From the IMG/VR virus record IMGVR_UViG_3300013307_000673: a stretch of 64,000 nucleotides of DNA; one strand, written 5' to 3'. Within the stretch, counting starts at the first letter, position 1; the number at the start of each line of letters is the position of its first letter. The position numbers and the translations under genes are program-made. Positions 8,675-38,995 of the stretch are shown piece by piece. The notes beneath the pieces are model-generated. The model had not been told where the DNA came from. It saw only the letters and a program-made list of their open reading frames with translations, and ran no database searches. Origin of the DNA: a virus. Lineage: Duplodnaviria; Heunggongvirae; Uroviricota; Caudoviricetes.

Positions 8675-9811
8675 TTATTTTAACGCTTTCTTAGCATATA
8701 GCTTGATAGCTGTCTGCTTGTATTCTGGCGTTTTACCCGCATAGAGCTGCATAAGTAATGGCATCAGTGCTTTCTCATCTTTAACCGCACGGGCGAAATC
8801 CCCACGTTCAAGATGTTTATTTGCCTCATAAAGAGCATTAACCTTAGCCACCATATCATGGTATGTCTGTTTAGCGTAAGCCTCAACCTTATCGGCATTA
8901 GCAAGACGCTGCTCAAGATTGTAGTTAGGACTGCGAGCCTTATATACAAACATTGAACGCACTTCATCAAGCATTTCATCAAGAGCCGCACGATAAAGAT
9001 TTTCACCTTCTTTGCTCAGATCCTGAATACTGATAACACTCACCATACTCAGATAAGGCAACGTCTTAATCTTGAGCATACGACCATCATTGAACTCAAG
9101 CACATAACCTTCAATGTCTTTACGGGTGATGTCTACATCTGCTACAGCAATAGGCTTAACCAGATGTGCAGCAATCACAGGATACTCTTTAGCAAACGCT
9201 TCAGAACGGATATCCAGATATTCACCTGTAAGTAAAGAACGCGCTTTCAGCACATGAACAGCATAATCTTTGTATTCGATCATTACACGGTTTACAGGTG
9301 TAGTCAGCTCCAGATCTACAGAGACATCTTTTTCGCTGAGCGCTTGAAGTTCCACTAAAAGCTCAGGAGAAATACTTTTATTTACTGCTTCTTTATTCAG
9401 GTATTCCGGCACATTTTTACTTTTGAACTTCACCAGACCATCAAAGGGAGAAATGTAGCTCGTCAGAAGAGAACCGTCTTCTTTGATATAAGCCATATCC
9501 GCATCGCCAATCTCGATTTTCAGATCTTCTTTCTCACCCTCACCCAAAGAAAAGAACTTCTTCATAGGCAGAGCCAGCAGTTGCGCTTCACCTGTGTTAG
9601 TATTAACTAAAAACAGAGTGCCTCGGCAGTTCAGACCATTTGGGCGCTTAAAATCAGAAAAACGAGGAAGCATGTAAGTAAATACGCGAAAAAGAAGATC
9701 GGAATGACCTTCAATCGGGTAATCTTTTGTTAAAAACTCACCGCTGCCTGTTTCTACAAGCTCAGTTAGTTCAGCAAACAGTGTTTTCTGAAAATTATTT
9801 TGTTCTTTCAT
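8675..9811 (-). CDS. rnl1: T4-type RNA ligase 1 (Rnl1/gp63 family)
   Basis: Motif I KEDGSL, N-terminal CRG..F and PMKKFFSLGE, NRVMI, EGYV (motif IV), LKIK (motif V); 378 aa like T4 Rnl1. Confidence 0.92.
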   Translation of the reverse strand: MKEQNNFQKTLFAELTELVETGSGEFLTKDYPIEGHSDLLFRVFTYMLPRFSDFKRPNGLNCRGTLFLVNTNTGEAQLLALPMKKFFSLGEGEKEDLKIEIGDADMAYIKEDGSLLTSYISPFDGLVKFKSKNVPEYLNKEAVNKSISPELLVELQALSEKDVSVDLELTTPVNRVMIEYKDYAVHVLKARSLLTGEYLDIRSEAFAKEYPVIAAHLVKPIAVADVDITRKDIEGYVLEFNDGRMLKIKTLPYLSMVSVISIQDLSKEGENLYRAALDEMLDEVRSMFVYKARSPNYNLEQRLANADKVEAYAKQTYHDMVAKVNALYEANKHLERGDFARAVKDEKALMPLLMQLYAGKTPEYKQTAIKLYAKKALK

Positions 9812-30632: not shown

Positions 30633-30723
30633 AGAATCCTCTTTTATTTAAACGTAGTGTGTAGTGCGACATTATAGCTTGATTTGACAATAAAATACAA
30701 CCACTCAAAACAAAAAAGAGAGC

Positions 30724-30966
30724 CTAAGCTCTCTCTGTTTTTATTTTACCGCATTTATTGATCTGCTCTATGATTTTCTCAATCGTTTTCGGATTGCTAA
30801 GATCAAGAGAGACTTTTCCATCTCTGTTTATCGTGTAAGTTCCAGTATTTTCTTTAAGCGCTTTTGCCAGTCTTCCTTGCGGATAGGATAGCTCACTCTT
30901 AGGAAATAAAGAAGAAACGCCTTTAAAATGGATGATTTTATCGAGTAATGTCTTTATGATTTTCAT
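30724..30966 (-). CDS. hypothetical protein
   Basis: Start moved to MKIIKTLL (GAGG RBS) because the longer ORF overlaps a tRNA-like RNA. Confidence 0.65.
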   Translation of the reverse strand: MKIIKTLLDKIIHFKGVSSLFPKSELSYPQGRLAKALKENTGTYTINRDGKVSLDLSNPKTIEKIIEQINKCGKIKTERA

Positions 30967-30990: not shown

Positions 30991-31140
30991 TGGTGGTTGC
31001 TGCAGGATTCGAACCTGCACATAACAGTCTACACAGAAAGCCGCTACTGTATCAAACATAAAAAGACATGCATATCTCTTTATATCTGGTGCTTGTCACC
31101 TTCTTATCGTCTGTCATAGCTCCCGGCTATCCAAACAACC
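30991..31140 (-). ncRNA. 150-nt tRNA-like RNA (intact acceptor and T-arm, large insert in anticodon position)
   Basis: GGTTGTT/AGCAACC 7-bp acceptor, A73, CCA, T-arm GCAGG-TTCGAAT-CCTGC, TGACAG/CTGTTA stem enclosing ~80 nt. Confidence 0.75.
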
Positions 31141-31960
31141 AGTGGTCCGGGTTATAGTCATTCCCGGTATCGCTTGTCTCAGACTAATGCCCCAATCTGT
31201 TAGGAGCTACACAAACATTTTAGATTAAAAGAGGAAGTCTTGCGAGTCGTCGCGGTGTCCATGTTTTCTCTGCGGTTTTTTATTCGCTTATAACCGCCAG
31301 ATACCAGTAATGGAACATCCTTTACGATGGCAGCTTTCTCTGCCAACTTCCTCTCTTCTGCTTCGCTGTCTGCCGTAAGATTGCAGTTTTCTCTTACAGC
31401 ACAAGTCAGTGTTTATAAGCAACAAACTGACAGCTCGCTATTCTATTCAACTTAAGATATTCACTTTACGACTCGTCGCAGAAACCGCGTAGGCTTGGCC
31501 TTTTGTTTCTCTGCAGTCTTTTCTTCGCTTTCTGACTGCCGGATACTTCGCTAATCTCTTTTACGATGACAGTGAACTGCCTGTAAATATCCTTATCAGT
31601 GTTTATTAGCAACCAACTGATAACCCGCTTTTCAACTTCAAGTGGTAGGTGTTTATCTCCTACTTGATTGCCATCGATAGAGTCGCTCAGGAGTTGCAAG
31701 CTCGCTTTTTGCGGTCTTGGCATGTGTTTTCCAACATTACAAGACAACGGAGCAGTTTCCGCACAACCATCCCATATTAACTATGGATTCACTTGTTTTG
31801 CTGATTCTATCAGCTCGCTCCACAAATAGTAGCGCTCTGATTATCCTCAACAACGTCGGGGCCAGGAACCACCCTGTTTCTCCCCTAATAGCTTTTCTCA
31901 GTCCCGGCCTAAGAGAGGGCCACTACTTTAAGGACTATGGTTTGTAGCGATGGTGGTTTA
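31141..31960 (-). ncRNA. candidate large (~800 nt) structured RNA
   Basis: No credible ORF; many helices; duplicated internal modules; bounded by tRNA-like elements. Confidence 0.6.
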
Positions 31961-31983
31961 GATCAAAGCCACATTCTCTCACC

Positions 31984-32066
31984 TTGTGCTCTGTAAAGGA
32001 TTTGAACCCTTATTCTACCATTCAGAACGACCATCTGACTAGGTTAATGGCGAAGGTCGTCGCCCT
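31984..32066 (-). ncRNA. elbow-only tRNA-like element with upstream pseudoknot
   Basis: T-arm AAGGG-TTCAAAT-CCTTT, D-loop-like AATGGTAG, GTTCTG/CAGAGC; hairpin GGCGA/TCGCC whose loop CGACC can pair with GGTCG. Confidence 0.45.
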
Positions 32067-32200
32067 CTGGTTGAAACTGCCAGCCAGCATTCGCATTCCA
32101 TATCGTCTTCAGCGAACTTATCCCGCTTGCCCTTGGAACTCATACCAGACAAGATGATTTAGAATAACAGCCTCAGTCTAATCTGCTATTCTAATGAGTT

Positions 32201-32285
32201 TGGTGCTCCGGGTCGGACTCGAACCGACACGCCTTGCGACATCAAGACCTAAACCTGACGCGTATACCAATTTCGCCACCGGAGC
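32201..32285 (-). tRNA. tRNA-Leu(UAG)
   Basis: GCTCCGG/CCGGAGC acceptor, anticodon loop TT-TAG-GT, long variable arm, TTCGAGT, CCA. Confidence 0.95.
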
Positions 32286-32404: not shown

Positions 32405-32469
32405 TGAAAAGATTATACATAAAGTCTTTTTTAAAAACAAGCTTTATTTTAAATTTTCGCTTTACTTCA

Positions 32470-35196: not shown

Positions 35197-35270
35197 TGGT
35201 GTCAATGGCGGGATTCGAACCCGCGTCCAGAGTTTTAGAGACTCCTGCTTTACCGCTAAGCTACAAAGAC
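35197..35270 (-). tRNA. amber-suppressor tRNA (anticodon CUA)
   Basis: GTCTTTG TA GCTT AGCGGTA AAGC A GGAGT CT-CTA-AA ACTCT GGAC GCGGG TTCGAAT CCCGC CATTGAC A CCA; two U-U mismatches in acceptor. Confidence 0.85.
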
Positions 35271-36416: not shown

Positions 36417-36516
36417 GATAATCTCCTTGCCTGAAGTTTTAAATTTGATACAGTAAACGTTTAAGTGTAGCATTTACCAATATTAAATGAAAGTAATATT
36501 AATAAAGGAGTTAGCA

Positions 36517-36909
36517 ATGGGATTTTACACAACCACATCTTTAAATCGTTATGCAAATCTTGGGAGTCCAGGAGAAAATGACGATAGCTTAGGCGATTAT
36601 TGGGAACGTATTAACGATACATATATTGAAAATGAGAAAAGCCTTGAACTAGCTCAAAAATATGGCGTCTCACTTTCCGTTGAAACCAGTCAGGAACGCT
36701 ATCAGCTTTTATTTGTTATTCATAATGCGGGCAGTGAAATCCAGAGTCATTTTTACGCCGATGAGTTTTGGGATCTTCCAGATGTTAAAGATGATGAAAC
36801 ATTTTTCCAACGCTCTGAGGATTTTATTAAAGAGTTTGTTTCAGCATTCCCGGAGTTCGAAGGTTGTGAGTTTGGCACGGTAAGTAAACGTTTTTCAGCA
36901 TCATCTTAA
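36517..36909 (+). CDS. paralog family A, copy 1
   Basis: AAGGAG RBS; SLNRY...SLELAQKYGV...LFVIHN...PDVKDDETFFQRSEDF. Confidence 0.85.
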   Translation: MGFYTTTSLNRYANLGSPGENDDSLGDYWERINDTYIENEKSLELAQKYGVSLSVETSQERYQLLFVIHNAGSEIQSHFYADEFWDLPDVKDDETFFQRSEDFIKEFVSAFPEFEGCEFGTVSKRFSASS

Positions 36910-36929
36910 ACAAAAAGGAGCAATAAATA

Positions 36930-37307
36930 ATGAGCATATATGCACTGGTGTCATTAAATACTGTTATTACGATCAAAGAAGACATTGATTATGATGAAGA
37001 CTACGATATTTTTGAAGAACTACATAGTAAATATGTATTGAAATCCAGAAATCTGGCAGAGTCATACAATCTTGAAACAGAAGTTTCTTTTTCTGACGAT
37101 AATCTCAACCTTATTATCCATAATAAATTGGGAAAAAATACGCTAGTTTTTAGTAGTGGCGAAACACATGACTTTCCCATCATTCCCGATGATGAGACCT
37201 TTAGTGATCGCTGTCAGGCATTTATCAAAGATTTAGCCGCAATTTATCCAGAAGTTTCTAACTTTAATATACCTGAAGCTAAAAAAAGGATATTTACTTT
37301 TTCATAA
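36930..37307 (+). CDS. paralog family, B-type copy
   Basis: SLN...LIIHN...PDDETF...KKRIFTFS. Confidence 0.85.
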   Translation: MSIYALVSLNTVITIKEDIDYDEDYDIFEELHSKYVLKSRNLAESYNLETEVSFSDDNLNLIIHNKLGKNTLVFSSGETHDFPIIPDDETFSDRCQAFIKDLAAIYPEVSNFNIPEAKKRIFTFS

Positions 37308-37454
37308 TCATCATGTTTTTCTTTTAACATAAAGAATACCAATATAAAGCCTCGTTAGAGGCTTTTATTATTTATTTACTATACTTTTATACACTTGACT
37401 AAGAAAAGCCTGCTTGTATGATGAAGTGATTAATAACAACAAGAGGATTTTACT

Positions 37455-37883
37455 ATGGAACTTATGGCAATAGCGACACTCAATCGCTACATAAACTTTG
37501 ACGACCCCAATGATGACGAAGACGAAGATTTTGATTACGTGGAACTGATTGAAAAAACCTATATCAATAATACTAAAAGCCGTGAGTTGTGCAATAAATA
37601 TGGGATCTATTTAACGACATTAAGAATTGATAACGATAGTTTAATTTTAATTATGATACATGATAGAGAAAGTGCAGTTCGTATTCCCTTATATAAAGGT
37701 GAACTTTTTAAGTTTCCAGACATTAAAGATGATGAAACTTTTTTCCAACGAACAGAGGATTTCCTTAAAGAGTTTACCATTTCCTTCCCTGATTTCGAAG
37801 ATATTGACTTTGGCCCTGTTGGTAAACGATTTACTGTAGAGAACCAAAATGACACTAAAAAGCACCCGCTCACTGCGCTATAG
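37455..37883 (+). CDS. paralog family A, copy 2 (ends TAG)
   Basis: TLNRY...PDIKDDETFFQRTEDF...VGKRF; own TTGACT promoter. Confidence 0.85.
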   Translation: MELMAIATLNRYINFDDPNDDEDEDFDYVELIEKTYINNTKSRELCNKYGIYLTTLRIDNDSLILIMIHDRESAVRIPLYKGELFKFPDIKDDETFFQRTEDFLKEFTISFPDFEDIDFGPVGKRFTVENQNDTKKHPLTAL

Positions 37884-38073
37884 GACGGATTTTTACGATA
37901 TTTTCAGGTAAAAAAAAGAATATTTACTTCTCCATAACTCCTTAAGCGCACATATAGAGTATTACTTAAAAGCCTCATCTGAGGCTTTTTCTTTTAACTC
38001 ATTCTTCATATAATTGACGAAATAAATCCTGCCTGTATGATATGACCATCAATAATAACAAGAGGATTTAACT

Positions 38074-38463
38074 ATGGGACTTTGGATCAGTGCAACACTA
38101 AATCGTTATACATCTATCGGCGGTGGACATGATTATGAGGATGTTTACGAATATTCAGAGCGAATTGAAAAAACTTACATTAAGGATCCTAAAAGCCTTG
38201 AACTAGCAAAAAAATACGGCGTTTATTTGAATACAACTATGGTTAATGATGGCGACCTGGTTTTGTTTATGATACATAACAAAGATAGTGAAGTTCGAGA
38301 TCATTTGTATGCAGGTGAACTTTGGGATATTCCCGATGTTAAAGACGACGAAACCTTTTTCCAACGCACAGAAGATTTTGCTAAAGAATTCCTTCTTGCT
38401 TTCCCAAGCTTCGAAGAGATGGAGTTTAGCTCTGTAGGCAAACGATTCACAGCAGTGTCTTAA
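38074..38463 (+). CDS. paralog family A, copy 3
   Basis: TLNRY...PDVKDDETFFQRTEDF...VGKRF; own TTGACG promoter. Confidence 0.85.
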   Translation: MGLWISATLNRYTSIGGGHDYEDVYEYSERIEKTYIKDPKSLELAKKYGVYLNTTMVNDGDLVLFMIHNKDSEVRDHLYAGELWDIPDVKDDETFFQRTEDFAKEFLLAFPSFEEMEFSSVGKRFTAVS

Positions 38464-38626
38464 ATGAACAGACTCTACGGAATTGAAAAATTTTAAACAG
38501 AATCCTCTACAGAGGCTTTTTGATCTATTCCTGTATATATTTTTTATACATATTAGTTTTAAAATTTGATATTTAATGTATATACATGTATATGTGTTTT
38601 AATAATACTACTAAGAGGAATAAAAC

Positions 38627-38995
38627 ATGAGTATTTGGACAAGAGCATCATTAAACCGCATAGCCTTGATTGGTGAATGTAGTGATTATGATTATAACGA
38701 ATTAGAAAAGAACTATATTGAGCCTTTAAAAGATTTATGTGAAGAGTTCAATTTAAGTATTGAATATGCTCCAAAAGATAGTTACTCAACGTATTATTTA
38801 GTCATTCATAATAATGGAAGCGAAACAGGCGATACATATTACGATGGCGATATTTCAGATTTACCAGTTATAAGAAATGATGATACTTTTTATCAACGAA
38901 CAGAAGATTTTATTAAAAAAGCGATTGAAATAGTGCCTGAGATTAAAGACCTAAAGTTTGAAGAAGCTAAAGCTAGAGTTTTTACATTCTCTTAA
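38627..38995 (+). CDS. paralog family, B-type copy 2
   Basis: SLNR...LVIHN...NDDTFYQRTEDF...KARVFTFS. Confidence 0.85.
   Translation: MSIWTRASLNRIALIGECSDYDYNELEKNYIEPLKDLCEEFNLSIEYAPKDSYSTYYLVIHNNGSETGDTYYDGDISDLPVIRNDDTFYQRTEDFIKKAIEIVPEIKDLKFEEAKARVFTFS

Follow-up and report, generated by a model that had tools for sequence, protein, structure and literature searches.

The window (the whole stretch of DNA that was analysed, 64,000 nt) contains a gap of 4.3 kb that holds just one or two credible short ORFs. Three tRNAs and numerous T-arm/CCA units are also found there, every one of them on the minus strand. Within this gap lies an operon of ~1.7 kb which comprises, in order, a tRNA mimic, a tRNA-Leu, an upstream structured element, the large RNA considered here, a further tRNA mimic and a small ORF. 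The operon is headed by a predicted promoter at 32440, of which both hexamers are conserved and the spacer varies (L026, L030, L034, L070, L071, L074), and is closed by an intrinsic terminator. The tRNA-Leu occupies the same place in all lineages, and the downstream mimic is likewise conserved, the L026 clade having lost 48 nt of it. The genes downstream vary among lineages. Coordinates of all features are collected in Table 1.

Table 1 Features of the operon and of the RNA (window coordinates)
Feature	Position	Strand	Remarks
sigma70-type promoter	32412-32440	-	TTGTTT-17-TATAAT; heads operon; presumed active
tRNA-Leu (UAG)	32201-32285	-	same operon
Upstream structured element	32068-32200	-	ends in CCA; 3' 60 nt resemble a motif in the ICP1 ~800-nt ncRNA
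Module I	31640-32067	-	~430 nt
tRNA-type T-arm inside module I	31995-32011	-	from sequence and T-loop scan
Accessory H-type pseudoknot X, copy 1	31596-31629	-	includes 25-nt hairpin; loop pairs with strand just upstream
Core domain, copy A	31455-31592	-	multi-way junction, 4-bp loop pseudoknot; R1 121.6 bits (model built from these very sequences)
Accessory pseudoknot X, copy 2	31406-31439	-	both stems compensatory in L034
Accessory pseudoknot Y	31358-31401	-	10-bp stem, four compensatory pairs
Core domain, copy B	31230-31354	-	R1 111.8 bits (model built from these very sequences)
Module IV	31143-31221	-	79 nt; kissing-type pseudoknot; ends in hairpin + ACCA
Downstream tRNA mimic	30991-31140	-	acceptor stem, T-arm, CCA; anticodon arm replaced; begins 2 nt past module IV
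Intrinsic terminator	30715-30736	-	closes operon after ~80-codon ORF

The surrounding island has several features of its own. About nine T-arm units are seen on the minus strand between 30991 and 35270, most of them without a normal anticodon arm; three promoters of the conserved type (35331, 34440 and 32440) precede T-arm units, and L071 retains a large part of the island. At its far end (35197-35270, minus strand) is a tRNA with a CUA anticodon, labelled Pyl by ARAGORN and a possible amber suppressor, which is conserved in L001, L026-28, L034, L070 and L074. TAG ends 11 of the 73 long ORFs, and there is no sign of full TAG recoding in the window.

Extent and coding status

Our best estimate of the full extent of the RNA gene is 925 nt on the minus strand (31143-32067). 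Homology starts at 32067, right behind the CCA of the upstream element, and it is precisely at this 5' boundary that L001 carries an insertion of ~400 nt. At the 3' limit, 31143, a hairpin followed by ACCA stands two bases ahead of the tRNA mimic (31140-30991). The L001 insertion (L001:4513-4907), between the upstream element and module I, is AT-rich and contains a TATAAT box.

The 925-nt interval gives a minus-strand folding z of -3.6. A sequence-only reading of the window had proposed a structured RNA at 31141-31960, and for that stretch the z values are -5.07 on the minus strand and -2.44 on the plus strand; the same bias is seen in L034 and L026, and in L071 the strands are equal. The proposal of a structured RNA holds up, but its boundaries do not, as the RNA is read from the minus strand and runs past 31960 to 32067. 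The stretch had also been called ORF-free, and we see no conserved ORF across the RNA, with homologues having 9-29 stops in each frame.

We consider it almost beyond doubt, from these comparisons, that this is a real, conserved structured RNA, and we lean towards a mature molecule of at least 800 nt. One discrete transcript is our candidate form, and the lineage-specific loss of modules makes a row of smaller RNAs possible. Judged by its sequence, the RNA is noncoding, minus-strand and conserved in five lineages, with multiple pseudoknotted modules, a tandem duplication of a 115-140-nt domain, and modules that have been gained, lost and reshuffled.

Homologues and carrier element

Homologues were recovered by an exact-motif scan (which gave one relative, L001), by tracking of neighbouring proteins and by a pattern search for the 3' end. 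They represent five lineages: the window group (the window, L001, L070 and L074), the L026 group, L030, L034 and L071. Over the RNA, L001 is 92% identical to the window and the other lineages are 62-68% identical. At 62.5%, conservation of the RNA is about that of the DNA of the adjacent protein genes (59% and 66%); module IV is 89% identical between the window and L026. When viral and GTDB contigs were scanned with degenerate motifs, nothing came up beyond L001, L039 and matches due to chance, most of which lie in coding DNA, and blastn found no homologue of the element in phage, plasmid and complete E. coli collections. Six of the contigs with chance matches, from gut phages of ~60-100 kb (L014, L015, L016, L017, L021 and L003), carry permuted tmRNA genes that score above the Rfam cut-off.

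Homologues of a neighbouring gene lie on contigs of up to 1.37 Mb (1,369,952 bp), and the window's own group extends to contigs of 866 kb and has a Serratia isolate assembly among its members. In its supplement, the pMEGA preprint (10.1101/2025.09.30.679422) assigns the samples from which L077 and L079 come to clade 2; it also names a Serratia protein as the best match to HisS of pMEGA2. By these sequence relationships, the homologues are carried by 1.3-1.4 Mb pMEGA clade-2 megaplasmids of Enterobacteriaceae and by Serratia relatives. The phage context implied by the sequence-only reading is thus not borne out among the homologues, and we infer that the window itself probably comes from a pMEGA-related megaplasmid; compared with pMEGA clade 2, it is a more GC-rich (38%) relative, near the Serratia isolate assembly. 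Two IMG/VR records, L001 and L039 (G001 and G002), are classed as proviruses with 91-97% completeness. They appear to be megaplasmid fragments, because Terminase_6N finds no match in either and both are syntenic with the 1.3-Mb contigs. Three Pseudomonas megaplasmids also encode one of the neighbouring proteins; model R1 of the repeated domain finds no match in them.

Several other genes on these elements deserve mention. The Serratia element has an IS605/TnpB (Cas12f-like) element inserted beside its RNA island (L074:1673-2815). In clade-2 plasmids (L026:7788-9851, also L030 and L034), a large glycosyltransferase gene and an ORF of ~450 aa lie between the RNA island and a 220-aa gene, an arrangement not found in the window. 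In the window, five tandem paralogous acidic ORFs of 122-142 aa (36487-38995, plus strand) are in keeping with reports of multicopy protein clusters in pMEGA clade 2, and a T4 Rnl1-like RNA ligase (8675-9811, minus strand; weak Pfam match, 29% to jumbo-phage ligases) could serve tRNA repair.

Structure of the modules

Module I is the sole module found in every lineage. It comprises a 5' hairpin, a variable T-arm branch, an H-type pseudoknot, a loop-loop contact and a closed multibranch domain. The 336-nt 3' part contains 59 pairs, with 97.3% of cells paired (33-50% for slid partners) and ten pairs showing compensatory change; these and the following compensatory counts reflect few independent events, as there are five lineages, and the structures were derived from the same sequences. 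For the whole of module I, RNAalifold gives 23 of 78 pairs as compensatory. The pseudoknot has compensatory changes in five of its 12 pairs and the loop-loop contact has none. A helix spanning 31972-31944 is conserved in all homologues. The T-arm is present in the window, L001, L071 and L034 and is degenerate in the L026 clade; the acceptor-like helix that follows it (T-arm and helix at 32011-31963) is absent in L034, and its CCA reads CAA in the window. An internal ACCA run (31957-31951) lies within a loop that pairs with 31873-31868 and hence is not free. The only candidate self-complementary loop (31694-31685) is imperfect in the window and in L026, and a candidate long-range helix (32050-32046/31675-31671) competes with a covarying local hairpin.

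Downstream of module I is a core domain that occurs twice, and a search with R1 found exactly two copies in each searched record having the domain. Across 18 copies about 35 positions are invariant, and the 32 pairs are 96.7% paired, with compensatory changes in 18 of them and slid controls at or below 50%. The core 4-bp helix shows one compensatory change (in L034B), and the loop pseudoknot is invariant except for a one-sided G-C/G-U change. The 4-nt docking strand and its receiving loop are near-invariant in both domain copies, and the whole presents as tandem pseudoknotted repeats with invariant A-rich loops.

The core domains are accompanied by accessory pseudoknots. All the motifs of the sequence-only reading are found where it placed them. 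It had noted a 25-nt repeat at 31406 and 31596, which we confirm as identical at 23 of 25 positions with G-C versus A-T flanks (the best of 100 dinucleotide shuffles reached 20/25); a 13-mer repeat was likewise found at 31321 and 31560. The 25-nt hairpin is part of pseudoknot X, of which copy 1 has the same architecture as copy 2 and shows compensatory stem changes in L001. In pseudoknot Y, the loop pairing changes from G-C to A-U in L034 and in the L026 clade. We also considered that the 25-nt hairpin loops might kiss loops of the core domains, and dropped this, as across all lineages pairing holds only for the strand just upstream. Module IV is 100% paired, with compensatory changes in three of five pseudoknot pairs, all of them from L030; it is absent from L034 and L071.

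The helices that had been picked out from the single sequence fared unevenly in the alignment. Pairing of 31230 with 31346 is real, closing domain B with covarying columns. The 31513/31534 helix is also real, not as a long-range contact but as a local stem of domain A. Two crossing helices had suggested a long-range pseudoknot. Of these, the 6-bp helix 31251/31484 is broken in five of seven homologues (L001, L034, L026, L030 and L037), and in these five the 8-bp helix 31243/31468 carries a single mismatch, with no compensatory change among its pairs. They appear to cross because a near-palindromic motif occurs once per duplicated domain, where its covarying partner is found inside the domain. 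Pairing of the two ends is not supported either: each of the strands involved has a partner nearby, with compensatory changes in the case of the 5' strand, and the 3' strand is missing altogether from L034 and L071, where such pairing is impossible. The broader idea, of a large structured RNA with duplicated domains beside tRNAs, is supported by covariation in the homologue alignment. A systematic helix scan supported no unambiguous helix joining module I, both core domains and module IV.

Order and loss of modules

In the window and L034 the modules are arranged I-X-A-X-Y-B, and in the L026 group I-Y-A-B. The first domain copy of the L026 group has a closing helix and an upstream Y like those of the second copy in the window, and a tree groups these two copies weakly (81/83). 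Together these observations suggest that domains were duplicated or shuffled on separate occasions. In L071, module I is followed directly by the terminator, and the core domains and module IV are missing. Wherever modules occur, their order is preserved. Between module I, A and B we find no CCA end, T-arm or terminator, and the spacers are about 3-11 nt.

A motif shared with the ICP1 noncoding RNA

In a blastn search of all phage records (2.3 Gb), the 60 nt at the 3' end of the upstream element (32129-32070) hit the genome of vibriophage ICP1 between gp139 and gp140 (E=3e-3). The ICP1 counterpart of the motif lies at HQ641347:80833-80865. The shared 17-nt loop is identical, and both flanking hairpins are 100% paired, with four compensatory pairs when ICP1 is included. 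Over the element as a whole (32068-32200), the 5' end pairs with the loop, again with compensatory change. We found no further carriers of the shared motif in IMG/VR. A hammerhead reading of the shared loop was rejected, as stem III would not fit and L071 has a changed GAA core. The upstream element may also resemble a 23S rRNA hairpin motif. A mature RNA of about 1,050 nt that takes in this element is possible but disfavoured by the L001 insertion, which lies between the element and module I.

Searches for known RNA families

Rfam scans of the window and homologues, by gathering threshold and by E-value, returned tRNAs only. At the locus itself no family was matched at E up to 5, whether ribozyme, riboswitch, RNase P, intron, OLE, antitoxin or CsrB-type. 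The GOLLD model (RF02032) found no match in the window (E up to 5), in three homologues (E up to 1) or in the L001 contig (E up to 10), and scored 165 bits on phiCbK as a control; the ROOL model (RF03087) found none in the window or the homologues tested, and scored 130 bits on pMP118. These negatives, with the positive controls detected, agree with the sequence-only suggestion that this is not GOLLD or ROOL and may be a new class. In the reverse direction, R1 found no match in GOLLD or the ICP1 RNA, and a profile of the element found nothing in ROOL, GOLLD or the ICP1 RNA. Model R2 gave nothing significant against ROOL and GOLLD, with one match of 8 bits (E=0.23) overlapping the 5' end of a ROOL locus. 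The tmRNA models, including the permuted form (RF00023/RF04321), found no match at the locus, where the acceptor-like helix and CCA are unconserved, and detected phage permuted tmRNAs elsewhere as a control. GGA of the CsrB/RsmZ type is not enriched (14 observed, 19 expected), and is at or below expectation in three lineages. We did not find a description of this RNA in the open-access literature.

Proposed function and alternatives

We weighed five candidate explanations, which are not fully exclusive. The one that we prefer, with a probability of about 0.45 for the whole package, is an abundant, self-associating RNA-only scaffold or decoy that would act in the manner of GOLLD and ROOL without being a member of either family. 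The RNA would be transcribed from the promoter at 32440 together with the tRNA-Leu and the tRNA mimics, and released by host tRNA-processing enzymes, with RNase P acting at the 5' end of the mimic (31140) and 3' trimming to the ACCA at 31143. It would then accumulate as a stable, abundant RNA. Since the docking strand and loop are near-invariant in both copies, the pseudoknot may equally close between copies or molecules, and such closing would allow self-association, with the duplication raising valency. The likeliest benefit would be to bind or titrate host RNA-targeting factors, such that the 1.3-Mb plasmid survives abortive defence. The analogy is drawn because contacts that covariation had predicted in GOLLD and ROOL turned out to bridge separate molecules (PMC12286853), and because intergenic RNA peaks, not tied to this locus, are described in the pMEGA preprint: its most extreme peaks are intergenic, two in clade 2 exceed 1 kb, and the loci are unnamed (10.1101/2025.09.30.679422). 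The motif beside the RNA that recurs in the most abundant ICP1 transcript also speaks for this reading. Speaking against it are the want of an unambiguous helix linking the modules, the module losses in L071 and L034, the imperfect self-complementary loop and the one-sided change in the loop pseudoknot of the core domain. Taken separately, self-assembly is a tentative proposal that falls short of even odds, and the counter-defence role is more tentative again. Unlikely, in our estimation, is the fully specified version, in which a plasmid RNA of ~0.9-1.05 kb would form an RNA-only multimeric particle with interchangeable duplicated docking domains, displaying tRNA-like parts (T-arm, ACCA ends) as a decoy, with the neighbouring mimics, against tRNA-targeting defence.

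The most serious competitor, although we would not bet on it, is that a single precursor is cut, as for the nearby tRNA mimics, into several smaller structured RNAs arranged head to tail, with lengths of about 430 nt, about 200 nt (twice) and 79 nt. Its main argument is the independent loss of modules, with just module I in L071 and no module IV in L034; the missing firm inter-module helix and the CCA-ended units that compose the surrounding island point the same way. Against it stand the junctions between I, A and B, which lack any CCA end, T-arm or terminator and measure about 3-11 nt, as well as the paired state of the internal ACCA and the preserved module order. Type III antitoxins contain tandem short pseudoknot repeats of the ToxI/CptI type, placed ahead of an endoribonuclease toxin gene, and a monomeric RNA of this or a sponge kind, sequestering one protein per repeated domain, would suit the tandem pseudoknots with A-rich loops and the counter-defence role that has been proposed for pMEGA tRNAs (10.1101/2025.09.30.679422). 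We regard it as improbable: no antitoxin or CsrB-type family matches, GGA is not enriched, no adjacent toxin gene was recognised, and the downstream genes differ by lineage.

A compact junction with about 35 invariant positions in 18 copies is typical of a precise tertiary fold, and the repeated domain could accordingly be a catalytic core or aptamer, for example one acting on the flanking tRNA mimics. The unmatched ribozyme, riboswitch, RNase P and intron models, the absence of a conserved downstream gene as a regulatory target and the loss of the domain in L071 make such a ribozyme or ligand-binding RNA very unlikely. Slimmer still are the chances of a highly diverged GOLLD, ROOL, permuted tmRNA or group I intron. 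Size and tRNA-array context, the T-arm followed by an acceptor-like helix, and the 8-bit R2 match at a ROOL locus would favour this, but the family models stay silent where their controls score well, the element profile is silent in ROOL, GOLLD and the ICP1 RNA, and the acceptor-like helix is lost in L034 with CAA for CCA in the window.

If the fully specified version above is correct, the RNA would be a new class of large RNA in E. coli-type hosts, with a directly testable function and a motif link to the unexplained ICP1 RNA. The function of the large ornate RNAs (GOLLD, ROOL and the ICP1 RNA) is still an open question, and here an Enterobacteriaceae host can be had, the megaplasmids having been reported from infant guts and from isolates of E. 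coli and Salmonella. The lineages offer a natural deletion series, with module I alone (L071), the 3' module missing (L034) and pseudoknots reshuffled (L026), and the 115-140-nt domain, which duplicates and covaries, represents a new RNA fold of small, solvable size. The unexplained intergenic RNA peaks of more than 1 kb on pMEGA plasmids could also stem from this RNA; the preprint describes no structured noncoding RNA (10.1101/2025.09.30.679422).

Comparison with known systems

We are dealing with a real large RNA family, probably undescribed so far, that is of a known general kind and has an unusual duplicated-domain architecture. In setting it is like ROOL, which is also large and multiply pseudoknotted, lies by tRNA islands and occurs on a megaplasmid, pMP118 of L. 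salivarius (RF03087; PMC12286853, PMC12990946). ROOL, however, has a long terminal helix and intertwined 5' and 3' halves, whereas the ends of the megaplasmid RNA do not pair with each other and its modules are lost independently; our systematic scan found no conserved 5'-3' terminal helix of the ROOL type, and the 3' end is missing in L034 and L071.

Like GOLLD, the megaplasmid RNA is large, is located close to tRNA genes and belongs to a mobile element, and the two are alike in having ~800 nt or more, tRNA arrays alongside, separable 5' and 3' domains, possible internal tRNA parts and many kissing loops (RF02032; PMC12286853). They differ in that the universal part of GOLLD is its 3' region and that of the megaplasmid RNA is the 5' module, and in the internal tandem domain duplication, which is not described for GOLLD in that study (PMC12286853). 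The gp139-gp140 interval of ICP1 gives rise to the most abundant transcript of that phage, which is ~800 nt and unexplained (PMC7567579). ICP1 is a lytic phage without tRNAs, and its RNA has nothing similar to module I, the repeated domain or module IV, but it resembles the megaplasmid RNA in size, in falling outside any Rfam family, and in the two-hairpin motif of ~60 nt that it has in common with the upstream element.
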